From a virus (lineage: Duplodnaviria; Caudoviricetes), in IMG/VR virus record IMGVR_UViG_3300031760_000010, positions 32,001-96,000 of that record: a stretch of 64,000 nucleotides of DNA; one strand, 5' to 3'. Below are positions 7,299 through 56,703 of this stretch, one piece after another. Made by a program: the position numbers and the translations under genes. Within the stretch, counting starts at the first letter, position 1, and each line of letters opens with the position of its first letter. The notes below the pieces were generated by a model. The model had not been told where the DNA came from. It saw nothing but the letters and a program-made list of their open reading frames with translations, and ran no database searches.

Positions 7299-7372
7299 AG
7301 TCTTATGTCAGATTCGAACTGACCCCGCCAGTTTGGAAGACTGGTATGCTATACCGCTAACACTAATAAGAC
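7299..7372 (-). tRNA. tRNA-Gly(TCC)
   Basis: Cloverleaf; CCAGT-CT-TCC-AA-ACTGG anticodon arm; GTTCGAATC T-loop. Confidence 0.85.
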
Positions 7373-7408
7373 AAAATGCTCCTCGACGTTTTTTCGCGAG
7401 GAACATGA

Positions 7409-8620
7409 TTAAACCAACTCAATTGGATATATTGATTTAATTTTTTTATTATTACAAATAATAACAGTTTGGGACGGTGCTCCTTTAAGACGTTTACGTT
7501 CTGTAAATTCATCACCGTTATGTAGACACCCACTTTGAATCACCTTCACACCAGAAACTTCGTTCATCGCAGGATGATGCATATGTCCCATTAAAATAGC
7601 ATAGGGGAAATACCCAACATATGCACATAATTTTTGTATAGAAGTATCATTCAACCCGTCGTAGTCTCCATGGCAAATTAAATACTTGCTTTCACCAATG
7701 GCAAATTCAGAATACGTGTCATGTTTTTTATCTACATCAATATGATATTGTTTTTGATGCGCGAATATATGACTTAAAAACCATGGAACTAAATTATCTA
7801 GACGTTCTCCTAAAAGTGAATCATCTGCATTTTTCTCAATACGACTATGGTTCCCCGGCACATTATAAAAACTAATGTCTTCAAAAATTTCACCTAATTT
7901 ATACATAAAATCCGCAATTAACTCACAAGCAACCATTACTTGTTCCACAAGATTTTCTCTGTTTGCGATTTGGATTGAAAGATGAATAGTACCAGATACT
8001 AGGTCGCCTAAAGCTGCCACAACGCATTTTTTCGTATGATGCATTTCCGCAATCTCTTTAATTTCATTCAAATATTGTGTCAATCGATCTTTGGCTACTT
8101 CAGTATTAAATTCTTTTGTCTCTAGCCCTAAATGCAAATCAGATAAACATATAATCATAGTATTTGGATTTAATGCACTATAATCCCATAAAGAAGGAGA
8201 TAAATAAAACGGATATCGTTCTTTCCCCAGCTTTTCGATCTTTTCTTCTAAGATGCGTTGGTTCTCTTCATGACGTGCTTCATCTCTTAATAATTTATTT
8301 AATTCATTGCGTTCATCTTGGAGTTTTCTCTTGGCTTTATATATTTCTTGCTCTTTAGCAATCATATCTTTGATAGCTTCTTCAGATGTCTTCCCAATAA
8401 CTTTGTTTTTATAAAATTCTCTTACAAAATTGCCACCTAAAATGTTACGTCCCATCGATTCAGAAATACGCCTGCGATCAAATGGAAGATTATATTTCTC
8501 AATAATCTCAACCCAATCTATATCATTCACTCCGTTAATCTTATCTGCACAATCTTGTAAAAACTCTTCATAAGATTCTGGAGTAAGACCAACTAGTTTT
8601 AATTCGGTTTCTATATTCAA
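7409..8620 (-). CDS. Calcineurin-like metallophosphoesterase with N-terminal coiled coil
   Basis: DLHLG, GDLV, GNH, HGD, GHMH motifs. Confidence 0.85.
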   Translation of the reverse strand: MNIETELKLVGLTPESYEEFLQDCADKINGVNDIDWVEIIEKYNLPFDRRRISESMGRNILGGNFVREFYKNKVIGKTSEEAIKDMIAKEQEIYKAKRKLQDERNELNKLLRDEARHEENQRILEEKIEKLGKERYPFYLSPSLWDYSALNPNTMIICLSDLHLGLETKEFNTEVAKDRLTQYLNEIKEIAEMHHTKKCVVAALGDLVSGTIHLSIQIANRENLVEQVMVACELIADFMYKLGEIFEDISFYNVPGNHSRIEKNADDSLLGERLDNLVPWFLSHIFAHQKQYHIDVDKKHDTYSEFAIGESKYLICHGDYDGLNDTSIQKLCAYVGYFPYAILMGHMHHPAMNEVSGVKVIQSGCLHNGDEFTERKRLKGAPSQTVIICNNKKIKSIYPIELV

Positions 8621-8647
8621 AGCATAATCTCCTTATTGTCATCTATA

Positions 8648-8851
8648 TTAATCAAAATCATTACTTTCTAATTCAATAATCTCTTCAGATTTAGCGGTAC
8701 AAGCTAATGAGAAAGGCTCATCACCATACACTTCTTCCAAATTGGCAATTAAATTTACAACTTCACCTGATTCAAAATCCACAATCTGATGCTCTTTCAT
8801 AACTAAATCCTTAAATTTAATATCTGTCTTTACTGTTCTTTTTGCTTCCAT
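8648..8851 (-). CDS. Small acidic protein, YonK-like
   Basis: GGAGG RBS; size and position next to the phosphoesterase as in SPbeta. Confidence 0.5.
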   Translation of the reverse strand: MEAKRTVKTDIKFKDLVMKEHQIVDFESGEVVNLIANLEEVYGDEPFSLACTAKSEEIIELESNDFD

Positions 8852-8926
8852 AATTTTCCTCCTAAAAAATAGGAGAGAGGACATAATCTGCCCTCTCTCC
8901 CGATTTATTATTTATTTGCTTCCTTA

Positions 8927-9109
8927 TTATTTATAAACATAAGTAGTTGAATTCTCCCTATACTCCTTTAGTTTATATAGCGCCTTCCGATCTTCCGTTA
9001 AATAATATCTTTTAGCACGACCTTTATGTGTCGCACTAGAAACATGCACTAAATAACCTAACTTTTTTGACCGCAGATAATCTGCTTCATCATGAGTAAT
9101 CTTAATCAT
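8927..9109 (-). CDS. Small hypothetical protein
   Basis: MIKITHDEADYLR; the longer ORF call overlaps tRNA-Thr. Confidence 0.6.
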   Translation of the reverse strand: MIKITHDEADYLRSKKLGYLVHVSSATHKGRAKRYYLTEDRKALYKLKEYRENSTTYVYK

Positions 9110-9150
9110 ATTTATTCCTGTGTCTTTCTTAATATTTCCTGTAAAGGATA

Positions 9151-9223
9151 AGCTCCCGCCCGGACTTGAACCGGGAGCCTGTTGATTACAAATCAACCGC
9201 TCTACCAATTGAGCCACAAGAGC
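9151..9223 (-). tRNA. tRNA-Thr(TGT)
   Basis: Cloverleaf; GTTGA-TT-TGT-AA-TCAAC. Confidence 0.9.
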
Positions 9224-10674: not shown

Positions 10675-11776
10675 CCTATTTGTTTCGTCCCAGGCTCTTT
10701 ATCCTGGGCGGCTCCGGGTTTCCCCGGAGTGTCGGACTATATCTTCACCTACGACTTTACGTTTAGGTGTTCGGCGCTCGTGGATGAATTATCGCTTTAC
10801 CCGCTCGTCATCTAGTCTCTAAGCTTTCCCATCTTTATTCGGTATTGGATGGGCTTAGTAATTGATTGGCTTATGTGTGTGATAATAATTAATTAGCCAT
10901 TTCGAAATAATAATTGTGATATAATTTCTGCTTTTTTGCCGCTCTTGATATGCAAGAAATCATACTTGATATTTTAATAGATAGTTTGCATTGCTCTTTA
11001 ATCCATGCGCAAGCATCCATTATCGTATCTGTGGTTAGTATATAATTTTTGTTTTGATCATATATATGAACTCGTTTGGCATTGGGATTTTCTTTTCCGG
11101 TTTGATGAGATAGGCGGTTTTTTGTTTTCGCTAACCACTGTTGATACTTTTCATCCGACATTCGTTCTTTTGGGGAAACCCCAAACATCGCGTTATTAGC
11201 ACCCGATGAAGTAATGCTGTATCGCTGTTTTAATTCGGCTACTTCTTCAGGCGTCTTTAACTCCCAATAATTGATTCCATAGGCAGGATTCTTTTCCCCT
11301 TTCATGGCCTCAGAATGTTGAATACACCATTCTTTGCTATGCACCATCCCCACACTACCATCTCCTCCAAAAGTATGGTTGGTTAAATGCCCTGGTTCAT
11401 TCTGACGATTATTATAACCAATAATATCAATCCCATAGCCTTTATTAAAAACATAATCCATAACAGTTTCATGTTCTAGTCGGTATGCTTCTTCTTCAGA
11501 TAAATTATCATAAAGAATATTTACACGCATTCCCACTTTATTAACAATTCTATCATGATGTTCGTTCCGTCTAGTATTGTAAGCTCGTTTCTTTCGTCCT
11601 TTTCCCACATAAAAACAAGTATCATTATCTAATCTAATATGCTCATATACACAATATCCTTGATCTTCTATATATTACACCTCCTTTTTAATTTAACTAT
11701 TATCACACACACTTAGCGTTCCAATTTTCACCGAATATTTTTTACGCATATTTCTATACGCTGGCCCAGTATGTTA
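10675..11776 (-). mobile_element. Group I intron (~1.1 kb) in the RNA polymerase gene
   Basis: Exon ends in U, intron ends in G; core elements CTTAGAGACTA (R) and AAGATATAGTCC (S); splicing restores NNGSDQDSD. Confidence 0.88.
10889..11671 (-). CDS. Intron-encoded GIY-YIG homing endonuclease
   Basis: CVYEHIRLD...FYVGKG...RAY motif, NUMOD-like repeats (GEKNPAYG, GANNAMFG, GKENPNAK); probable ATA start 8 nt after AGGAGG. Confidence 0.85.
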   Translation of the reverse strand: MEDQGYCVYEHIRLDNDTCFYVGKGRKKRAYNTRRNEHHDRIVNKVGMRVNILYDNLSEEEAYRLEHETVMDYVFNKGYGIDIIGYNNRQNEPGHLTNHTFGGDGSVGMVHSKEWCIQHSEAMKGEKNPAYGINYWELKTPEEVAELKQRYSITSSGANNAMFGVSPKERMSDEKYQQWLAKTKNRLSHQTGKENPNAKRVHIYDQNKNYILTTDTIMDACAWIKEQCKLSIKISSMISCISRAAKKQKLYHNYYFEMAN

Positions 11777-31830: not shown

Positions 31831-33084
31831 ATGGATGTATTACTGCAGAAAATGTTTTTGGAACCAGAGAGATGGACCGAAGCGATTGAAATTGGTGTTG
31901 GTAAAAACATCAGCAAAACAGAAATGAGACAGTTATGTGATCCTGAAGTACGGAAAGCATTGTTGTACAAGATTGCAACAGATCAGTACAGAATTGCTCC
32001 ACCGCATACAGCACAGATTCCAAAGGATACACCGGGTGAATTCAGAACGGTTTATATCAATGAAAACATTGATCGAATCTTTCTGAGTCTGGTGAACAAT
32101 CTTCTGTTTGAGATGTTCCCGGAGATGATTCATCCTGCTTGTACGTCTTATCAGAAGGGCATCGGTTGCGGCAAGGTAGTGCAGAGTATCTCTAAAGAGA
32201 TACAGAAAGGGAACGGAACAGTCGGATTCAAATCAGATCTGAGTAAATACTTTGATTCAGTCCCGCTGAAATGGATTGATTATGTCTTCGATCAGATCGA
32301 AACGAAAGTCGGGAAGAGCATAATCATTGATATTATCCGTGATTATTATCATACGGACTGGTGCTTTGACATTGAAGGGAATTTGATTCAGCATTATCAG
32401 TCATTGAAACAGGGCTGTGCTGTAGCGAGTTTTCTTGCGGATGCCATGTTATATGACATGGATGAGCGGTTAAGTAAACTAAAAGGGAAGTATGTACGAT
32501 ACAGTGATGACTGTTTATATGTTGGATCTGATTATGAAGATGCAATGCGGATAATGAAAGCAATGTTAGCAGAGAAAGGACTGACATTGAATCCGAAGAA
32601 AGTAGAGTACATTGATGGAAATCGTTATGTCAAATTCCTTGGTTTCAGCATTTGCGGAGGAAATATCAGTCTCAGTAAGAGCCGAGTAAAGACATTCCAG
32701 AAAGAAATTGAAAAGCGAACCATCAAAAGCAAACGGTCGTATAAAGCAGCTGTAAATGCAGTCAATCAGTATCTGTATGGTGGAGAATACAGTTGGGCAA
32801 CATCTGTATTACCAATCATCAATGTAGAGGAAGACATACAGGAACTGAACAAGTTCGTTATGGACGCATTGAGAGCTGTGCAGACAGGGAAAAAGAAGAT
32901 AGGAGGTCTTGGCTATGTTCCTGATGGTAAAGTAGGCGTGATCAGTCGTGGAACTGGCCGCAACGTAAAAGCGAATCGTATGAAAACAGCTAAAGAAATT
33001 AGTGGGTATCATACGATTAATGAAATGCGGCTGGCTTTAATGACTTCAAGGGAAGTGTTTGATACTCTGGTAAGAATGATGTAA
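31831..33084 (+). CDS. Stand-alone reverse transcriptase
   Basis: RT blocks: IPKD..GEFRTVY..IDRI, SYQKG, KSDLSKYFDSV, LKQGCAVASFLAD, YVRYSDD, GLTLNPKK, KFLGF; no endonuclease domain, no VTG retron motif. Confidence 0.95.
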   Translation: MDVLLQKMFLEPERWTEAIEIGVGKNISKTEMRQLCDPEVRKALLYKIATDQYRIAPPHTAQIPKDTPGEFRTVYINENIDRIFLSLVNNLLFEMFPEMIHPACTSYQKGIGCGKVVQSISKEIQKGNGTVGFKSDLSKYFDSVPLKWIDYVFDQIETKVGKSIIIDIIRDYYHTDWCFDIEGNLIQHYQSLKQGCAVASFLADAMLYDMDERLSKLKGKYVRYSDDCLYVGSDYEDAMRIMKAMLAEKGLTLNPKKVEYIDGNRYVKFLGFSICGGNISLSKSRVKTFQKEIEKRTIKSKRSYKAAVNAVNQYLYGGEYSWATSVLPIINVEEDIQELNKFVMDALRAVQTGKKKIGGLGYVPDGKVGVISRGTGRNVKANRMKTAKEISGYHTINEMRLALMTSREVFDTLVRMM

Positions 33085-33086
33085 AC

Positions 33087-33315
33087 AACAAATCATTATG
33101 GCAAGAATGTATGCTAGGCAAATGAAATTTAAGTCATACAGCTCCCAGCCACTTAACCTGGATCCTGCCAGGCTCGAGCTTGGCAAGTTGTCTGACGACA
33201 ATGCCGGAAGCTCGAACCAGGCAGGATCCAGGTGACCATCCTGAAGTATCCTTCAGGATTAGTCGCTGGTAGCTGTATCTCCTATGAAACAAATAAAGGA
33301 AGCCATCATGTTTGT
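33087..33315 (+). ncRNA. RT-associated hairpin cassette 1
   Basis: Closing ATGGC/GCCAT; branched hairpin 33136-33278 including 14-bp ACCTGGATCCTGCC/GGCAGGATCCAGGT and ATCCTGAAG/CTTCAGGAT. Confidence 0.7.
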
Positions 33316-33334
33316 AAGGCATACATAAATAATA

Positions 33335-33480
33335 GTGCAATGGAAATCAATAAGGATCTTATATTTAGTCCATGCTGGAGGCGGCCACCGGTCGTCGCCC
33401 GCAATGGACTCTATCGTTATGCGGGCGACGACCGGTGGCCGCCTCCAGCATAATGACATGAGACAAATAGAGAGAAGCAC
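33335..33480 (+). ncRNA. RT-associated hairpin cassette 2
   Basis: Closing GTGC/GCAC; perfect 32-bp inverted repeat 33372-33403/33420-33451. Confidence 0.75.
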
Positions 33481-33507
33481 CGCAAGATATGAGTTGGTTT
33501 CAATCCT

Positions 33508-33659
33508 AATGGCAAGGGAAGTATGAGGAGAGGTAAACATTTATGATTACGGATCCCGGCAGCACCTGCTGCAGGCACACGTTTCATTGACATTCACGGA
33601 TCCTGCAGCAGGTGCTGCCGGGATCCGTAATTGATGATACTCAGTACAGAGATGCCATT
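33508..33659 (+). ncRNA. RT-associated hairpin cassette 3
   Basis: Closing AATGGCA/TGCCATT; perfect 30-bp inverted repeat 33546-33575/33602-33631. Confidence 0.75.
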
Positions 33660-33702
33660 TTTACCCCGGATCATACATTTAATAGAGTAAGGAGACAGCG
33701 AA

Positions 33703-34146
33703 ATGATTTTGTTTGATAAATTGGTCAACGAGATAGGTAAAGGTTCGTCAGTACTCATACGACTGAAGGAAAAGGACCTAATCGTGAATGGTCAGTATTG
33801 GATTCAGAACGGTAAAGTAAACGAACCGTGTGATACACTGATGAAACACTATGCGAATATTATGGAACTGATTGAAGATATGTATATCAGTTACAAGTAT
33901 TCGTATCCCGATGAAATGGGAACCAAACGAAAGCGAAGTTATTTTAAAGCGCTTACCGCTGATGAAATGACAGATGCAGAACTGGTGACTGGTGCTAAAA
34001 GGAGGACAGCAAGAGTTCTGTTAGAAGCAACTGTATTACTTAGTACATTGAACGGAGATCTCAAATGGAGGGATGAATGGGGATCTTGGTTCTATCAGGG
34101 AAAGAAAGATAAGGATTTCATTCTGTTAAAGGAATGGGTCGTGTAA
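33703..34146 (+). CDS. Hypothetical protein inside RT cassette locus
   Basis: AAGGAG RBS; 147 aa. Confidence 0.7.
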   Translation: MILFDKLVNEIGKGSSVLIRLKEKDLIVNGQYWIQNGKVNEPCDTLMKHYANIMELIEDMYISYKYSYPDEMGTKRKRSYFKALTADEMTDAELVTGAKRRTARVLLEATVLLSTLNGDLKWRDEWGSWFYQGKKDKDFILLKEWVV

Positions 34147-34198
34147 CGTAACTTAGTGGGTAAGTAAACTACAATATAAAATAATAGGAGAATAAATT

Positions 34199-35125
34199 AT
34201 GCAGAACAGAAATAATAGAATGAACACTCTGAACAACGCTGGTATCGATACTTCCAAATATTATAACGTGGCTATTGACAAGGCACTTCCGAAGGGAACT
34301 ACGCTGACGATCACGATTGGTGAGAATGGTCTGCCTACGGTTACGACAACGGAACTGAAAGGAATGCTGGACCAGATCGACAATCAAGGATATGTAAAGA
34401 ACAGCAATCTGTTCAGACGTTGGGTGATGGCTCAGACGTTCCGTATGATGAAACATGAGGGCGGCTATACCACAGCTCTGAACGAGAAGCCGTATAAGTA
34501 TCAGTGGACGATGCTTGAGAATGAACTTCATGCTATGAGCAAGATCGAAAAGGAAGATAAAGAACTGTTCAAGGTACGGAAAGATTTCTTTACCAAGGAA
34601 GTGATCATTGCCATGCTTGAGGATTACAAGGCAAAGCTGAATGCCGAGTGTGAGCGCGAGTTTTGGGCGTGGGCACAGCGTAAGCGTACAGAAGGTATCG
34701 CAATTGCGAATATCACAATTGATGCAATCAAGCAGTGTACAAATTATAATGGTTACTATCAGATTATCCGAGAGTTTAACAAGGAACTGAAGGGTGGACG
34801 AAGAGATGGTTATTATTGCCCGGATCTGACACTGAGCCGTACCACTGCCAAGTGTAAGGAATGGATCGATGCGTACAAGGGAGCGGGTGCGTATTACAGC
34901 CTGCAAAATTATCTGCGGTTCCATGCAAATACTCATGTATATCTGCCGACGAATGAGAGAGGCCGTGTTCTTTGGGCAACTCGTCTGGAGGCGGAGGGAG
35001 AACTGGAAGTCAAGAGAGAAGAATACAAGGGACAGTGGTATAAACTGTTCGGTTACTTCAAGAGAGTAATTGAACTGAATCAGTTCGATTTCGATAAAGC
35101 CATGCGTCAGAAGTATAATCGGTAA
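34199..35125 (+). CDS. Hypothetical protein inside RT cassette locus
   Basis: AGGAG RBS; 308 aa; LFRRWVMAQ, WIDAYKGAGAYYSLQN motifs. Confidence 0.75.
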   Translation: MQNRNNRMNTLNNAGIDTSKYYNVAIDKALPKGTTLTITIGENGLPTVTTTELKGMLDQIDNQGYVKNSNLFRRWVMAQTFRMMKHEGGYTTALNEKPYKYQWTMLENELHAMSKIEKEDKELFKVRKDFFTKEVIIAMLEDYKAKLNAECEREFWAWAQRKRTEGIAIANITIDAIKQCTNYNGYYQIIREFNKELKGGRRDGYYCPDLTLSRTTAKCKEWIDAYKGAGAYYSLQNYLRFHANTHVYLPTNERGRVLWATRLEAEGELEVKREEYKGQWYKLFGYFKRVIELNQFDFDKAMRQKYNR

Positions 35126-35138
35126 TAACGGAAAGGGA

Positions 35139-35261
35139 TTGCGACCCGATAATACAATACTATAAGTTTAACATTATGATCCTGGAAGGCGGATAGCTGC
35201 GGATTATCTTCCGGCTTCCGCCTTCCAGGATCAGATTGATGAATCCATTACAGAAACGCAA
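35139..35261 (+). ncRNA. RT-associated hairpin cassette 4
   Basis: Closing TTGCG/CGCAA; 17-bp inverted repeat 35177-35193/35217-35233; same flanking motifs and spacing as cassettes 1-3. Confidence 0.7.
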
Positions 35262-35288
35262 AATGATAGTTGAGTATTGTCAAAGTCC

Positions 35289-35342
35289 TTGCCAAAGGAC
35301 AATGAGCATGGTATAGTATGAACAGAAACGAACATATGTTCG
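35289..35342 (+). promoter_or_regulatory. Sigma-A promoter with LexA (Cheo/SOS) box
   Basis: TTGCCA-N17-TATAGT with extended TG; CGAACATATGTTCG at 35329-35342. Confidence 0.75.
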
Positions 35343-35359
35343 AAATATTATAAAGGGGG

Positions 35360-35602
35360 ATGACGAATATGTATGTTGTAGTTGTAACCAATAATTATAA
35401 TGACAAAGGAGAAGCTATCTTATGTAAGACAAAAGATGACGGTATTAAGGAACTGAAGGAAAAATTCTTGACACTATGTGATGAAGCAATCAATTTAAAC
35501 AGACACCACACACATGTGTCTGCTGATCTGCTGTATGCGGAAGTATGGGATGGATTATTGGCAACAGAAATGAGAGTACTACCCGCTGTGGGAACGAACT
35601 GA
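35360..35602 (+). CDS. Small hypothetical protein, putatively SOS-regulated
   Basis: Monocistronic between SOS promoter and terminator. Confidence 0.6.
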   Translation: MTNMYVVVVTNNYNDKGEAILCKTKDDGIKELKEKFLTLCDEAINLNRHHTHVSADLLYAEVWDGLLATEMRVLPAVGTN

Positions 35603-35622: not shown

Positions 35623-35654
35623 AAGGAACCAGTAAACACTGGTTCTTTTTCTTT
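35623..35654 (+). terminator. Rho-independent terminator
   Basis: GAACCAGT-AAAC-ACTGGTTC-TTTTT. Confidence 0.7.
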
Positions 35655-35716: not shown

Positions 35717-36466
35717 ATGGCAAGAAGAAAGCCGAAACAGTACAAGCTGACAAACGGCGTGGTTTATGATCTGTATCTGACAGGAGACACGCATGTGCAT
35801 ATCTCTAGCGGTAACGAAAAGATTGGCAAGGGAATTTACAATCTGTCCTTGCTTCCGGGAGACGAACCGTTGAAACGGAAAGATGGTCTGCAGCTTACGA
35901 ATATTGCTGGTACTTGCCATGGTTGCTGTGATGGTTGCGGTGATTGTTGCTATGCAAAACGTTCTGCAATTCAGCATCACAATGTGAACATCAAAGCATG
36001 GGGTGAGAATACTATGCTTGCAAGGGAAGATACGGAAACGTTCTTTGCTGAGGTCCAGACCTTTCTTGATCGCAATGTGGTTTCGGTATTCCGAGTTCAT
36101 GTGGGCGGAGAGTTCTTCTCTTATGCTTACATAAAGAGATGGGTTGAGTTCGCTGCGAAGAATCCTGATGTGATCTTTTATGTTTACACGAAGCGGTTCG
36201 GATGGGTCGAGAAGGTAGACGAAGAGTACAACGGAGTTCTTCCTGATAATTTTAGAGTGCTGGTTTCGATTTGGCATAAGAATTACAGCAACCCGAGAGG
36301 CTTTGCAGAGTTCATTTATGACGACGGAACGGAACCTGAGCTGAAAGATGTTGTCCACTGCCCGGCAGTAGATAAGAATGGTCATGAGACTGGTGTTACT
36401 TGTTCGATGTGCAAGAGATGCATTAAGGCAAAGAAAGGGACCAGAACTGCAGTGTACGCACATTAA
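35717..36466 (+). CDS. GP88-family (radical-SAM-like fold) protein
   Basis: TC..CC..C..CCYA, FRVHVGGEF, FYVYTKR, CP..TCSMCKRC. Confidence 0.7.
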   Translation: MARRKPKQYKLTNGVVYDLYLTGDTHVHISSGNEKIGKGIYNLSLLPGDEPLKRKDGLQLTNIAGTCHGCCDGCGDCCYAKRSAIQHHNVNIKAWGENTMLAREDTETFFAEVQTFLDRNVVSVFRVHVGGEFFSYAYIKRWVEFAAKNPDVIFYVYTKRFGWVEKVDEEYNGVLPDNFRVLVSIWHKNYSNPRGFAEFIYDDGTEPELKDVVHCPAVDKNGHETGVTCSMCKRCIKAKKGTRTAVYAH

Positions 36467-49165: not shown

Positions 49166-49241
49166 TGGGGTGTCGCCAAGGTTGGCCAAAGGCATAGCAC
49201 TTTGAATGCTACATTCGTTGGTTCAAATCCAACCACCCCAG
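49166..49241 (+). tRNA. tRNA-Gln(TTG)
   Basis: TAGCA-CT-TTG-AA-TGCTA. Confidence 0.85.
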
Positions 49242-49337
49242 CTCAGTCATAAGCAATCTGTTCCTCCAGTATATACAAAATAACAGAAAGGAAAGAGTTT
49301 CCCACATTTTTCCATTCCTTCAATGCTTATGACATTC

Positions 49338-49425
49338 GCCGGTATACTCAAGAGGTTGAAGAGGGATGACTTGAAATCATCGAGGTCACGAAAGTGGCGC
49401 GGGGGTTCGAATCCTCCTATCGGCG
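49338..49425 (+). tRNA. tRNA-Ser(TGA)
   Basis: GATGA-CT-TGA-AA-TCATC, long variable arm. Confidence 0.88.
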
Positions 49426-49499
49426 TTGTATTGACTACATATTGTGCCATTAAGGCAACCTCCTTTCGCAACCGAGCTGAGCGGTATATCTCAGCATAT

Positions 49500-49581
<82 letters not shown>

Positions 49582-49585
49582 GTTT

Positions 49586-49673
49586 TGGGGATTAGCTCAG
49601 TTGGTGAGAGCCAAGATCTTATAAATCGGAGGCCCTAACAAGGAAATCGTGGGTTCGAATCCCGCATCCCCGA
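49586..49673 (+). tRNA. Atypical tRNA-Ile(TAT) with long variable arm
   Basis: CT-TAT-AA loop, only 3 canonical anticodon-stem pairs, ~19-nt variable region. Confidence 0.6.
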
Positions 49674-49697
49674 TGTCCAAGGTCTAAAAATCGTTTT

Positions 49698-49786
49698 ACT
49701 CCGGTGGCGGAATAGGTAGACGCATTATAGAAAGCCCGGATAGGCAGGTGTATATCCATGCAAGGTGCAAATCCTTACCCGGAGAA
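49698..49786 (+). ncRNA. tRNA-like RNA with Leu-type D arm and non-canonical anticodon region
   Basis: CTCCGG/CCGGAG acceptor, TGGCGGAATAGGTAGACGC D arm, GGTGCAAATCC T arm. Confidence 0.55.
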
Positions 49787-49989
49787 GTGGAGTATGACTC
49801 ATACAGAAGTTATTATTGCTGTCGAAATTAATTTATCAAATAGCTTTTGATATTCAGCTGCTGTTTTTTTCATAACAAACCTAGCCTCCTTAAGATTTCA
49901 TCAGTTTTTCACTTTTATTAAGGATGGGGTCTGTATGAGTCATTCACTCCAAATCATGTATGTAATATTATGTTATTTAAATAATAATA

Positions 49990-50062
49990 CGCCTTGTAGT
50001 TTAAAAAACGGATAAAATACTTTGATCTTGAAGTGACCAGGGTTCAAATCCCTGTAAGGCAT
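49990..50062 (+). ncRNA. Degenerate tRNA-like RNA
   Basis: GCCTTG/TAAGGC acceptor, CAGGGTTCAAATCCCTG T arm, irregular anticodon arm. Confidence 0.5.
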
Positions 50063-50104
50063 TATGCGAAATGATTGCAACATTATCGCAGAGCTTGCAA
50101 AGGA

Positions 50105-50172
50105 ACCCATTTACGTTAGTGGTAGACGACCCATAATTATGGACAGCAGAGGTTCGATTCCTCTAATGGGAA
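50105..50172 (+). ncRNA. tRNA-like RNA lacking a 7-nt anticodon loop
   Basis: CCCATT/AATGGG acceptor, AGAGGTTCGATTCCTCT T arm, CCATAATTATGG palindrome in place of the anticodon arm. Confidence 0.55.
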
Positions 50173-50238
50173 TGGTTGGCAGCCATAATTGCTATAGTAT
50201 CTATTGATACAGTATAAATTAAATATGGAGAAAACAAG

Positions 50239-50877
50239 ATGGAAAAAGTTAGAATGACAGTACATGAAGCGTTGTGTGAAATCAAGGTTGCGGATAATAA
50301 GATTGAGAAGGCAATTGATAATGCTGTTTTTTGTGTAGTCAATAAGGCGAGTAATACCAAAATTAACGGCGCAGATATCAAGGACTTTAATGAGAACGCA
50401 AAAGCATCGTTCCAGAAAGTAACGGATCTAATTCGTCGGACCGAAGCAATTAAAGCTGCTCTTAGCCTAAGTAATGCGGCAACGAGGATTACCGTAGGTG
50501 ATAAGGAAATGTCTGTAGCTGAGGGTATCTATGCAATGCAGCATGGAATGGAGAGCAAGCGAGAGTTGCTGTATGCAATGAATAACCAGTATGCCCAGGC
50601 TTTACAGACTGTACAGTCCAATAACAAAATTGTTGAGGGAGAGCGTTTGGATAAATTTATTGCCAGTACTTTTGGCAATAAGGAAAAAGCAAGCCCTGAA
50701 GATATCCGGGTTGCAACCGAGACGTTTTTGAAACAGCAGAGATATGAGATTGTAGATCCTTTGGATATTAAGAAAAGGATTGATGAACTGCAGGATGAGA
50801 TTGATGAGTTCACTTCTAAGATTGATTCTGCGATTCAGATTAGTAATGCAACCACTTATATCGAGTTTAGTTATTAA
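50239..50877 (+). CDS. Coiled-coil protein (DIP1984/DUF6847-like pattern)
   Basis: MTVHEAL.EIK, IKAALSLSNA.T.I, MSVAEGI, IDSAIQISNATTYIE. Confidence 0.65.
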   Translation: MEKVRMTVHEALCEIKVADNKIEKAIDNAVFCVVNKASNTKINGADIKDFNENAKASFQKVTDLIRRTEAIKAALSLSNAATRITVGDKEMSVAEGIYAMQHGMESKRELLYAMNNQYAQALQTVQSNNKIVEGERLDKFIASTFGNKEKASPEDIRVATETFLKQQRYEIVDPLDIKKRIDELQDEIDEFTSKIDSAIQISNATTYIEFSY

Positions 50878-50902
50878 AACTAATAATATTTATCATACTA
50901 TA

Positions 50903-51229
50903 CCCTTGTATAGCGAAAACCACAAACCATACTTCACTGCACATTTTGGGCATTTTAGGTAGTGTAACAAAACAAAATATAAATGCTCTCCAAGAAAAAA
51001 CATCCTCATGATTAGGATTCTTATTGTTCTATGTACATGCTACGTACATAATTGTGAATATTAAGTATCTTGTATTGAGTAGGAAGTAATGCCTATTTAT
51101 TAATGAGTAACAGTTTTTATTGGATATTTATTAGATGACTAATGGATATTTATTCTGAAATCCATGAGTGATGGTTTTGGGCGTAAGTATAGTTGGCCTG
51201 TGGTAACCCACATGGCTGCTATGCAAGGG
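50903..51229 (+). ncRNA. Putative ~330-nt structured RNA
   Basis: Ends pair (CCCTTGTATAGC/GCTATGCAAGGG); no ORF; ~7-nt periodic core. Confidence 0.5.
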
Positions 51230-51234
51230 AGCAT

Positions 51235-51308
51235 GGTCCCATAGGCAAGTTGGTAAAGCCACAGCCCTTTCAAGGCTGAGACGCTGGGTTCGAATCCCGC
51301 TGGGACTA
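51235..51308 (+). tRNA. tRNA-Glu(TTC)
   Basis: CAGCC-CT-TTC-AA-GGCTG. Confidence 0.85.
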
Positions 51309-51311
51309 TTT

Positions 51312-51396
51312 GCGGTTTTACTCAAGTGGTTAAGAGAGCAGTTTGCTAAACTGCCAGGCCAGAAATGGTGCAAAGGTTCGAATCCTTTAAACCGCG
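51312..51396 (+). tRNA. tRNA-Ser(GCT)
   Basis: GCAGT-TT-GCT-AA-ACTGC. Confidence 0.88.
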
Positions 51397-51535
51397 TAGT
51401 CGCAATGGTGGCCCGCTACGATTTTCGGATCGGTATGACACTGGCAGATACGTCTGCAAAGACTGGCTTATACAGGTTGGTATAAGTCGTGAAAGCTCGC
51501 TGTTTTCGGACAGAATGAGAAAGGCGAGGGTGTTC

Positions 51536-51608
51536 GCGCCATTAGCTCAGTCGGTAGAGCACATGACTTTTAATCATGGTGTCATGGGTTCAATTCCCAT
51601 ATGGCGTA
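51536..51608 (+). tRNA. tRNA-Lys(TTT)
   Basis: CATGA-CT-TTT-AA-TCATG. Confidence 0.92.
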
Positions 51609-51626
51609 GTTAAGGAGGATTAAGGA

Positions 51627-51842
51627 ATGAAAGTGTTGAATAAAAAGAAGATGTCAGAAAATAGCGTGGCCATGATTGTTTGTAACGAAAAAGAAGCTAA
51701 TAATTTTCTTCGTGCAGACCCTTTGCTGAAGAATTCGTTAGTAATTATGGACCAATTGGAAGATGGTGCGGTTTGTGTAATTGAAAAACAAAAATTCATT
51801 GATTTCTTATCCGAGTATGGAGAGATTTGGGCGAAAGAATAA
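51627..51842 (+). CDS. Hypothetical protein
   Basis: AGGAGG RBS. Confidence 0.55.
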   Translation: MKVLNKKKMSENSVAMIVCNEKEANNFLRADPLLKNSLVIMDQLEDGAVCVIEKQKFIDFLSEYGEIWAKE

Positions 51843-51845
51843 AAT

Positions 51846-51916
51846 GGGTTGGTAGTTTAATGGTAGAACAATGGTCTCCAAAACCATAGATCTGGGTTCG
51901 ATTCCTAGCCTTCCTG
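51846..51916 (+). tRNA. tRNA-Trp(CCA)
   Basis: ATGGT-CT-CCA-AA-ACCAT; two U-U mismatches in acceptor stem. Confidence 0.75.
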
Positions 51917-51939
51917 CTTGTTTGAGATAATATATATGC

Positions 51940-52248
51940 GCTCCAGTGGCGGAACGGGAATACGCTGCGGACTTTTCACTTGGCGAACAATAAAGAAAGA
52001 GCCTTACATGGGAAACGATGTAAGTGGAGATGGCTAATTCGGCGAACAGCCAAGAGAACGCCGAGCTAAGTTAAGCAAAAAACTTGCTTATAAATGTGTA
52101 GAGACTATAGACCATCCACCTAAGTCAATATTGATATGGTAAAGACATAGTCCAGACTACAACGCAAATTATTGCGGCCATGGTGACATGGAGTAGTAAG
52201 AAAATCCGTTGACTTTAAGTCATGTGGGTTCGAATCCCACCTGGAGTA
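51940..52248 (+). tRNA. tRNA-Leu(TAA), intron-containing (exons 51940-51974 and 52201-52248)
   Basis: Spliced arm GCGGA-CT-T^AA-AA-TCCGT; acceptor GCTCCAG/CTGGAGT. Confidence 0.88.
51975..52200 (+). mobile_element. Group I intron (226 nt, no ORF) in tRNA-Leu anticodon
   Basis: After U34, ends in G; AATTCGGCGAA / AACGCCGAGCTAAG (P/Q), TGTAGAGACTA (R), AAGACATAGTCC (S). Confidence 0.9.
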
Positions 52249-52279
52249 TTCATATTAAACACAAAGGAGAACAACAGTT

Positions 52280-52819
52280 ATGACTGATGTAAGACTTAAG
52301 ATGTCCCCACCTTGGGTGGTATATGTCAATAAAGTTGAAGCATTGTTTGACGGCGATCCTCAAATCGCATGTAATGTTTATTTGGATGGATCAAAACCTT
52401 CTATTGTTTTGGCTTGCAATAATGGTGATAAGGTAACCGCTCTACAGCGACTTCTACCAGCCGAAGTAGAATTTGGTAATGTTACGCTTACGATTGAAAT
52501 TGATGGAGTACCTTCCAATCGTGCTTTCAAAAACAAGAAAGAACTTTTTGATGTAGCGTTTGAAAAGAATCCGGCATATGCATATGCTGTGTCTCCGGCA
52601 AATGAAGGATATGCATGGTTCGATATTGTTTATGCCGTCTTTAAGAATGTGGTTGTGCAGATGTTCGCGGATAATTTGAACGATTGTCATGGAATTATTA
52701 GCACTCTTTATGAAGATATTGCTAGAGAAATCCTGACTGGCGAGGACGCTCAGGGTGTATATTTCAATACAGATATTGAAGTTGGCAAGCTTGGTAAATC
52801 TTTGGACGAATGGCCGTAA
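52280..52819 (+). CDS. Conserved phage hypothetical protein
   Basis: LKMSPPW, VVQMFADNLND..G..STLYEDIA. Confidence 0.7.
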   Translation: MTDVRLKMSPPWVVYVNKVEALFDGDPQIACNVYLDGSKPSIVLACNNGDKVTALQRLLPAEVEFGNVTLTIEIDGVPSNRAFKNKKELFDVAFEKNPAYAYAVSPANEGYAWFDIVYAVFKNVVVQMFADNLNDCHGIISTLYEDIAREILTGEDAQGVYFNTDIEVGKLGKSLDEWP

Positions 52820-52897
52820 GGTTTGAATACTCGTTTTATTTGAATATTCAGGGCGAACTGTTCAGCCGTCCCTGATAAAACATAACGGCAGAACTTT

Positions 52898-52971
52898 CGG
52901 GATGTAGCGAAGCTTGGAATCGCGCCTGATTTGGGATCAGGAGATCGCAGGTTCAAATCCTGTCATTCCGA
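52898..52971 (+). tRNA. tRNA-Pro(TGG)
   Basis: CCTGA-TT-TGG-GA-TCAGG. Confidence 0.9.
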
Positions 52972-53130
52972 TGAAAGGGTTAAGAGCAAAAATATCACGT
53001 AACCCAGTGACGACCAAAGTTACGGGAATAAGGTTCGATGCGGTGTGTACAGCCAAAACGGAATCCTCAGACGAGTAGAAGTCAGGCCAAAATAGTGAGA
53101 TGTGCGGTTGCGATGACCTTAAGTCGCCCA

Positions 53131-53203
53131 GACCTTATAGCTCAATTGGCAGAGCACTTGGCCGTTAACCAAGGTGTTGTAGGTTCAAGTCCTACTAGGG
53201 TCG
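53131..53203 (+). tRNA. tRNA-Asn(GTT)
   Basis: CTTGG-CC-GTT-AA-CCAAG (C33 instead of U33). Confidence 0.8.
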
Positions 53204-53207
53204 TTAA

Positions 53208-53291
53208 GCCGATGTGGTGGAACTGGCAGACGCTGCAGACTCAAAATCTGTTGCCAGAAATGGCGTGTGGGTTCAAATCCCACCATCGGCA
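53208..53291 (+). tRNA. tRNA-Leu(CAA)
   Basis: GCAGA-CT-CAA-AA-TCTGT. Confidence 0.88.
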
Positions 53292-56338: not shown

Positions 56339-56504
56339 TTTTGAAATCTATGTAGCAGACTTTATTGAAGATTTGTCTCCAAAGACAATAGAGGAAATTG
56401 AAGATATAGCTGAAAGTTTGCACAACTCCTTGGAAGTAGGAATTAAAGATTACATCGATGGTGAAGATCGTTTCGATTATGATTATTATGAACCATTGTT
56501 TTAA
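56313..56504 (+). CDS. Small acidic protein
   Basis: AGGAG RBS. Confidence 0.5.
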   Translation: MIPYMRIIDFEIYVADFIEDLSPKTIEEIEDIAESLHNSLEVGIKDYIDGEDRFDYDYYEPLF

Positions 56505-56514
56505 TTGAGGTCAT

Positions 56515-56703
56515 TTGATGTATACAATATGTACAGAATGTATTCATAATAGAGTATGTAAAATGAAAAATGATGTAGATAGAGCGCTGATTCAAATCCA
56601 GAATAATAATTCTGTATCTATATTAGGTATTACAGACTCAGGTATACAAATTAGTGTAAATTGCAGCGAACGAGAGTTGAGGAAAACAAATGGTAGTAAA
56701 TGA
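56515..56703 (+). CDS. Small Cys protein
   Basis: CTECIH..VC. Confidence 0.5.
   Translation: MMYTICTECIHNRVCKMKNDVDRALIQIQNNNSVSILGITDSGIQISVNCSERELRKTNGSK

Follow-up and report, generated by a model that had tools for sequence, protein, structure and literature searches.

Reverse transcriptases (RTs) of the UG27 group were defined in 2022 as enzymes common in gut phages, where they are accompanied by accessory proteins of clusters 346 and 337, with a structured non-coding RNA (ncRNA) predicted in the gap that separates the RT from the gene coming next (Mestre et al. 2022, PMC9226505). Variable ncRNA arrays beside these RTs were described in a preprint of 24 September 2026 (bioRxiv 10.64898/2026.09.22.753630), which a second preprint credits with their discovery. 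According to the first preprint, the units are about 150 nt long (length classes of roughly 135, 149 and 167 nt) and consist of a basal stem, a pseudoknot (given for the 149- and 167-nt classes) and an asymmetric internal loop with UUYA and AUCN7UANAG; extra units stand in neighbouring intergenic regions, and the catalogue holds 82,314 units from 14,118 loci. Five UG27 systems placed in E. coli yielded single-stranded DNA (ssDNA) hairpins of 50-100 nt whose synthesis begins at AUC and stops after UUYA, and these complementary DNAs (cDNAs) were lost in YSAA mutants and upon deletion of either accessory gene; the authors consider the role of the hairpins unknown and saw no evident complementarity to the genomes of phages or hosts. 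Here we analyze the locus at 31831-35281 of a 64,000-nt stretch of phage DNA (the window), which comprises bases 32001-96000 of the linear IMG/VR virus record IMGVR_UViG_3300031760_000010 (122,559 bp); all coordinates are those of the window. Our analysis indicates that this locus is very probably a complete UG27 (class 2 UG/Abi) system composed of an RT, two accessory proteins termed sORF and bORF, and four ncRNA units from which hairpin cDNAs are to be expected.

The plus strand of the locus carries, in this order, an open reading frame (ORF) of 417 aa, a non-coding stretch of 618 nt, ORFs of 147 and 308 aa, and another non-coding stretch. The 417-aa product (31831-33084) matches Pfam RVT_1 (6.6e-23) and the PADLOC profile RT_UG27, to which its residues 4-417 align over positions 5-420 of 420 (656.5 bits, E 4.1e-198), as against 133.5 bits for the runner-up PADLOC model, UG26. 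Its YSDD active site is intact (VRYSDDCLYVG), and neither the NAxxH nor the VTG motif occurs in the translation, just as an earlier note on this DNA had stated. The 147-aa sORF (33703-34146, plus strand) belongs with cluster 346 (PADLOC RTas346, E 7.1e-40, residues 3-146 on positions 3-144 of 147), and its homologues adjoin the RT in related loci, while the 308-aa bORF (34199-35125, plus strand) belongs with cluster 337 (PADLOC RTas337, E 6e-63; 191 homologues). The predicted structure of sORF is confident (predicted local distance difference test, pLDDT, 88), and a Foldseek search with it returned no match to a known fold; that of bORF is likewise confident and mostly helical (pLDDT 83), with no Foldseek match at E <= 0.001, only generic helical-bundle matches by VIA (Z at most 8.3) and a weak, below cut-off Pfam CotH match (E 0.0034). 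We also observed that the 3' end of bORF (35076-35116) carries a 41-nt tandem duplication plus 'CA' in two contigs of related bovine-gut strains (X3 and X6), which would alter the last few bORF codons.

The earlier note had described an intact YSDD RT followed by three tandem cassettes and, two genes later, by a fourth, and all of these elements are present in the sequence as described, including the closing repeats ATGGC/GCCAT, GTGC/GCAC, AATGGCA/TGCCATT and TTGCG/CGCAA, the TTTA and a common 3' motif, which takes the form ATG-N7/8-TANAG in all four units. All four lie on the plus strand. Unit 1 (33098-33326) is closed by the stem P1 (33098-33102/33302-33306), bears UUUA at 33128-33131 and AUG-N7-UAAAG at 33284-33298, and encloses a branched cargo of 152 nt (33132-33283), far stabler than the other long candidates, with a hairpin at 33156-33233 (26-nt arms, 92% complementary) and a predicted, Y-shaped cDNA template of 159 nt (33128-33286). 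In unit 2 (33335-33501, 167 nt), P1 is formed by 33335-33338/33477-33480, UUUA lies at 33364-33367 and AUG-N7-UAGAG at 33458-33472; the cargo (33368-33457) has perfect 32-bp arms (hairpin at 33372-33451, 32-nt arms, 100% complementary) and a predicted template of 97 nt (33364-33460). Unit 3 (33508-33676, 169 nt) is organized likewise, with P1 at 33508-33514/33653-33659, UUUA at 33540-33543, AUG-N8-UACAG at 33634-33649, a cargo (33544-33633) with perfect 30-bp arms (hairpin at 33546-33631, 30-nt arms, 100% complementary) and a predicted template that is again 97 nt long (33540-33636). The detached unit 4 (35139-35281, 143 nt), located 3' of bORF, has P1 at 35139-35143/35257-35261, UUUA at 35167-35170, AUG-N7-UACAG at 35239-35253, a cargo at 35171-35238 with a hairpin spanning 35167-35243 (27-nt arms, 85% complementary) and a predicted template of 75 nt (35167-35241).

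The four units are real, but two details given by the earlier note had to be amended: cassette 1 closes at 33098-33102/33302-33306 and not at 33087-33315, and the loop from closing stem to TTTA measures 25, 25, 25 and 23 nt in units 1-4 instead of 25-27 nt. Likewise, the scaffold proposed there, namely closing stem, TTTA, hairpin and 3' motif, stands, but it lacked a pseudoknot, which lengthens each unit by about 20 nt downstream. In all four units, loop positions ~5-12 can form a helix of 6-9 bp with nucleotides that lie 12-21 nt beyond P1', the 5' loop and downstream strands being 33107-33115/33318-33326 in unit 1, 33343-33351/33493-33501 in unit 2, 33521-33526/33671-33676 in unit 3 and 35148-35155/35274-35281 in unit 4 (alternative register 35154-35161/35273-35280). 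The sequence of these helices differs among all four units, and their summed pairing run of 32 compares with a shuffled mean of 19.6 and was reached by none of 5000 shuffles. The 5' loop of unit 1 (33107-33115) is also complementary over 9 bp to the 3' strand of the unit 3 pseudoknot (33671-33679), and a common GTATG/CATAC core suggests that units 1 and 3 are paralogues.

The units stand out from the remainder of the phage genome. The four hairpins have folding z-scores of -7.0 to -11.5 relative to dinucleotide shuffles, and the whole 122.5-kb record contains six perfect hairpins with arms of at least 14 nt, of which four are those of the units. Taken by itself, the 3' motif shows no enrichment in the window (29 matches, 24 expected); a composite scan of the record, requiring P1, a loop of 23-25 nt, TTYA, a stable hairpin, AT[GC]-N7/8-TANAG, 2-5 nt and P1', recovered exactly these four units on the plus strand, and its sole call on the minus strand overlaps the hairpin of unit 4. 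A fifth candidate at 56480-56592 was rejected, being AT-rich, of the wrong loop length, inside coding sequence and absent from a stricter scan. An Rfam search of 33085-35300 gave no family match. A single-sequence covariance model built from unit 2 (R1) and run with filters off detected unit 3 with 47.8 bits and unit 4 with 27.6 bits, both on the plus strand, although it is too insensitive for relatives. Since no terminator-like site interrupts the plus strand from the RT start to unit 4, and a promoter-like site follows the latter (TTGCCA-17-TATAGT with an upstream TG, within 35289-35341), the four units and the genes probably share one transcript. Within 35289-35341 the promoter-like site is followed by the palindrome GAACATATGTTC, ahead of the next small ORF at 35360, and a clean terminator lies beyond unit 4 at 35623-35648.

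Whether homologous RTs carry such cassettes, and whether cassette number and cargo vary while the scaffold co-varies, were questions put forward by the earlier note, and both are answered in the affirmative by 80 IMG/VR loci whose RTs are 60-64% identical to that of the window. In these loci the composite scan found 504 units on the strand of the RT and 1 on the other; a locus has 1-9 units, the majority of which stand between RT and sORF, frequently with one or several after bORF, as in the window. Co-variation was assessed by anchored scans because MAFFT alignments of the units were too poorly registered. When the P1 criterion was dropped, 4 or more Watson-Crick pairs were present at the P1 position in 89% of 245 distinct candidates, as opposed to 4-32% in slid windows, and 5 or more pairs in 73%, as opposed to 0-2%; given that this pairing is kept in 38 distinct tetramers across the related units, P1 co-varies, in line with what the earlier note had seen within the window. 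The pseudoknot behaves similarly on a family-wide scale, with a mean pairing run of 7.18 with the unit's own downstream stretch versus 5.85 upon permutation (standard deviation of means 0.058). Furthermore, two positions outside the search criteria are conserved, an A after AUS in 81% and an A before P1' in 94% of the family units, and both are found in 4/4 units of the window.

The cargo, conversely, is essentially devoid of sequence conservation across the family: relatives' units of up to 175 nt hold 227 distinct cargos, which form 47 families with no common 10-mer. Even within the four largest orthologous groups, scaffold identity amounts to 91-94% compared with 79-84% for the cargo, and the hairpin apex is sometimes swapped outright between orthologous scaffolds. 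In several loci (e.g., L016:7106-7389, L072:7106-7388) the scan returned 'cargo' candidates of 226-229 nt that do not overlap other units; these may be two adjacent units, one of them with a degenerate 3' motif missed by the scan. Gene order in the UG27 module is variable as well, sORF being located upstream of the RT in some loci (L013, L042, L059 and L075).

A further property of the cargo concerns the strand on which it folds best. In 35 of 47 non-redundant units the cargo stem is more stable in the antisense, that is, the cDNA sense, as opposed to 10 in which the sense strand is favoured (Wilcoxon p 5e-5), and wobble pairs are correspondingly asymmetric (78 antisense versus 39 sense). The pseudoknot flanks show the opposite, RNA-level bias (56 G-U against 27 A-C). 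Within unit 1, two polymorphisms among related strains (33216 A>G and 33212 T>C) switch a stem pair: it is either a Watson-Crick pair or an A-C mismatch, the cDNA counterpart of which is a G-T wobble; this observation is anecdotal. Taken together, the bias toward cDNA-sense folding and the unit 1 polymorphisms suggest that the target of selection is the DNA hairpin and not the RNA; the strand asymmetry offers a cheap computational handle on whether a DNA hairpin is the selected product.

The profiles of the RT and its partners, the scaffold and the published homologues all converge on a UG27 template array, for which the following scheme can be proposed. Each unit would fold into the closing stem P1, an asymmetric internal loop and, between the two sides of the loop, the variable central hairpin. 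The 5' side would end in UUUA and pair as a pseudoknot with the nucleotides 12-21 nt beyond P1, while the 3' side would bear AUG-N7/8-UANAG-NNA. By analogy with the five tested homologues, a complex of RT, sORF and bORF would recognize the constant scaffold, DNA synthesis would begin at the AUG directly 3' of the central hairpin, and the RT would copy the hairpin and halt after UUUA, thereby producing four different minus-strand ssDNA hairpins of about 159, 97, 97 and 75 nt. Family membership, scaffold geometry, co-variation and the variable number and cargo of units in relatives were computed for the window, whereas the points at which the cDNAs start and stop, and the requirement for all three proteins, are taken from the preprint; we infer that the locus is active in cDNA synthesis. 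The suggestion of the earlier note that one RT copies several interchangeable templates into distinct hairpin cDNAs is supported through the five homologous systems, and the comparison of wild-type and YSAA enzymes that it had called for has already been carried out on homologues (bioRxiv 10.64898/2026.09.22.753630).

Several points weigh against this interpretation. The start triplet is AUG in 4/4 units of the window and not the published AUC, so that the AUG initiation site is an extrapolation, and the predicted product of unit 1 should be longer than the published 50-100 nt. None of the public runs with matching DNA that were checked is listed with RNA data. The strand-asymmetry test was calculated with RNA energy parameters on 47 units from related phages. 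Lastly, the predicted RT/sORF/bORF complex is weakly supported: in a three-chain prediction with sORF as the scored partner, the median score was 0.53 against 0.00 for the best control, with contact agreement between runs of at least 62% and partner pLDDT of at least 81, a mark reached by 58/80 solved complexes and 2/110 mismatches in a benchmark in which, at scores of 0.60 or under, only 7/80 solved complexes and both mismatches attain it. With regard to the start triplet, AUC is present in 480/508 family units, and AUG recurs in the two closest relatives, L001 and L002 (5/6 units), as well as in L070 (7/7 units). The closest AUG-type relatives (L002:7981-8575, L001:8089-8219, L070:7696-8544) have one or two units between RT and sORF and most of the array after bORF, and the layout of the window array is the reverse of theirs.

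A hairpin template enclosed by terminal inverted repeats recalls an msr-msd arrangement, and the RT does produce weak matches to PADLOC retron RTs (e.g., RT_Ec107-like, 34 bits), so that a divergent retron might be envisaged, with the closing repeats in the role of a1/a2, priming by a branching guanosine, and the hairpins as msd regions joined to RNA as msDNA. We regard this as very improbable: the 656 bits obtained with the UG27 model contrast with 34-49 bits for the PADLOC retron models, the NCBIfam retron St85 model reaches 46 bits against a cut-off of 235, the NAxxH and VTG motifs are absent, the units are multiple, pseudoknotted and placed downstream of the RT, homologous systems require two unrelated accessory proteins, and the accessible part of the preprint describes free short ssDNA and mentions no branch. 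The other RT classes were also rejected. A group II intron is at odds with a TIGR04416 score of 100.6 bits (cut-off 300) and with the lack of any such intron among the Rfam matches in the window; a diversity-generating retroelement (DGR) with cargos that have no match beyond chance elsewhere in the 122.5-kb record; and a CRISPR-associated RT with scores of at most 60 bits for Cas-associated RT models and no direct-repeat arrays, as the units have a scaffold in common and not direct repeats. Hence, the statement of the earlier note that the system fits neither retron, DGR, group II intron nor CRISPR-RT agrees with the assignment of the RT to UG27, the tests for all four having come out negative.

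That the units function solely as RNA, be it as processing sites, protein sponges or operon punctuation, with no functional reverse transcription, is improbable too, if slightly less so than a retron. Such a role would be compatible with the scaffold and pseudoknot being RNA-level structures with a G-U bias and with the position of unit 4 at the operon end, yet the RT is full length with intact catalytic motifs, homologous units are copied into cDNA according to the preprint, and the wobble bias of the cargo stems favours the cDNA strand. Least probable of all, to the point of being negligible, is a chance neighbourhood of the RT and generic hairpins, whether terminators, repeats of the repetitive extragenic palindromic (REP) or miniature inverted-repeat transposable element (MITE) kind, or assembly artefacts. 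Long perfect inverted repeats might call such elements to mind, as might the contigs of related strains, which either end at units 2 and 3 or leave them uncovered; de Bruijn assemblies are nevertheless expected to break at long inverted repeats, and differences in cargo cannot be deduced from such gaps and breaks. The hairpins lack U tracts, however, and the same DNA is contained in several independent bovine gut runs; moreover, the strand-specific conservation of the scaffold in 80 loci (504 units versus 1) and the co-variation of both P1 and the pseudoknot refute this explanation.

What the hairpins of a UG27 template array would do is a different matter. It is a guess that they act by binding proteins, in an anti-host or anti-defence capacity. 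A more specific proposal, which we consider rather doubtful, is that the DNA hairpin is the functional product and that the phage keeps a set of evolvable ligands or decoys directed at host DNA-sensing or DNA-processing proteins, each unit being a swappable 'warhead'. Cargo stems appear to be kept paired in the cDNA sense, given that mismatches are tolerated as G-T wobbles in DNA, and the replacement of apices between near-identical scaffolds would fit such a set; were the proposal true, the lineage-specific AUG start would imply co-evolution between the RT complex and the nucleotide at which it initiates. A variant in which the arms serve as restriction-site or palindrome decoys was rejected for want of family-wide enrichment and owing to inconsistent avoidance in the phage genome. 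The window cargo arms do contain GGATCC, CTGCAG, CTCGAG and ACCGGT, which occur 7, 17, 0 and 2 times, respectively, outside the units (8.1 expected each), and the 47 non-redundant family arms hold 23 6-mer palindromes compared with 24.3 after shuffling (z -0.27), with a z of 1.0 for 4-mers. Neither do the four cargos point to a sequence target: at E <= 0.01 they match none of the 80 related loci and hit solely L081, the copy of the window itself, and the longest exact matches to the rest of the 122.5-kb record are of 10-13 nt, as against a shuffled mean of 11-12.

The phage that carries the locus is a large bovine-gut (rumen) phage of roughly 150 kb, the record being an estimated ~80% complete with 37.8% G+C, and near-identical DNA was found in several independent bovine gut metagenome runs. 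The window contains twelve tRNA genes clustered at 49166-53291 (plus strand) and two further ones at 7299-9223 (minus strand), which is typical of a large phage. A full-model Rfam group I intron match lies at 10712-10963 on the minus strand (50.8 bits, gathering score 50), and a 249-aa protein with a Pfam GP88 match (PF17338, E 2.9e-21) is encoded at 35717-36466 on the plus strand, two genes downstream of the UG27 module.

Judged from its sequence, the locus is an intact and ordinary member of the UG27 family, a system that was already known; the novelty implied by the earlier note does not hold, as the RT group had been reported in 2022, together with its occurrence in phages (PMC9226505), and the array and its cDNAs followed in September 2026 (bioRxiv 10.64898/2026.09.22.753630). 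Retrons resemble UG27 systems in that a hairpin template between the arms of a short inverted repeat is copied by an RT into a small and abundant ssDNA, but the UG27 RT belongs to another clade without NAxxH or VTG, has many templates placed downstream instead of a single msr-msd upstream, and works with a pseudoknotted scaffold and two unrelated obligatory accessory proteins. DRT2 and DRT9 (UG2 and UG28) are, like UG27, class 2 UG/Abi RTs templated by a neighbouring structured ncRNA; theirs, however, is a long concatemeric or homopolymeric cDNA derived from a single ncRNA and serving host defence, whereas UG27 yields short discrete hairpins from an array carried by phages. With the published UG27 systems the window has in common the RT group, both accessory proteins and the phage context, as well as, judging by motif and geometry, the basal stem, pseudoknot, UUYA, variable central hairpin and AUS-N7-UANAG; units 2 and 3 correspond in length to the 167-nt class and unit 4 is near the 149-nt class, an extra unit occupies a neighbouring intergenic region, and unit number varies among relatives. 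It departs from them in the N8 spacer of unit 3, the 152-nt branched cargo of unit 1, the unusually perfect 30-32 bp stems of units 2 and 3, and its origin in the bovine and not the human gut. These results not only indicate that a multi-template system so far drawn mostly from human-gut phages is also intact in a large bovine-gut phage, but also add to the literature an AUG start, a long branched cargo, a bias toward folding in the cDNA sense and strain polymorphisms in unit 1. UG27 is of general interest as a natural producer of ssDNA in which one enzyme serves many templates, and it may lend itself as a tool for making ssDNA in cells.

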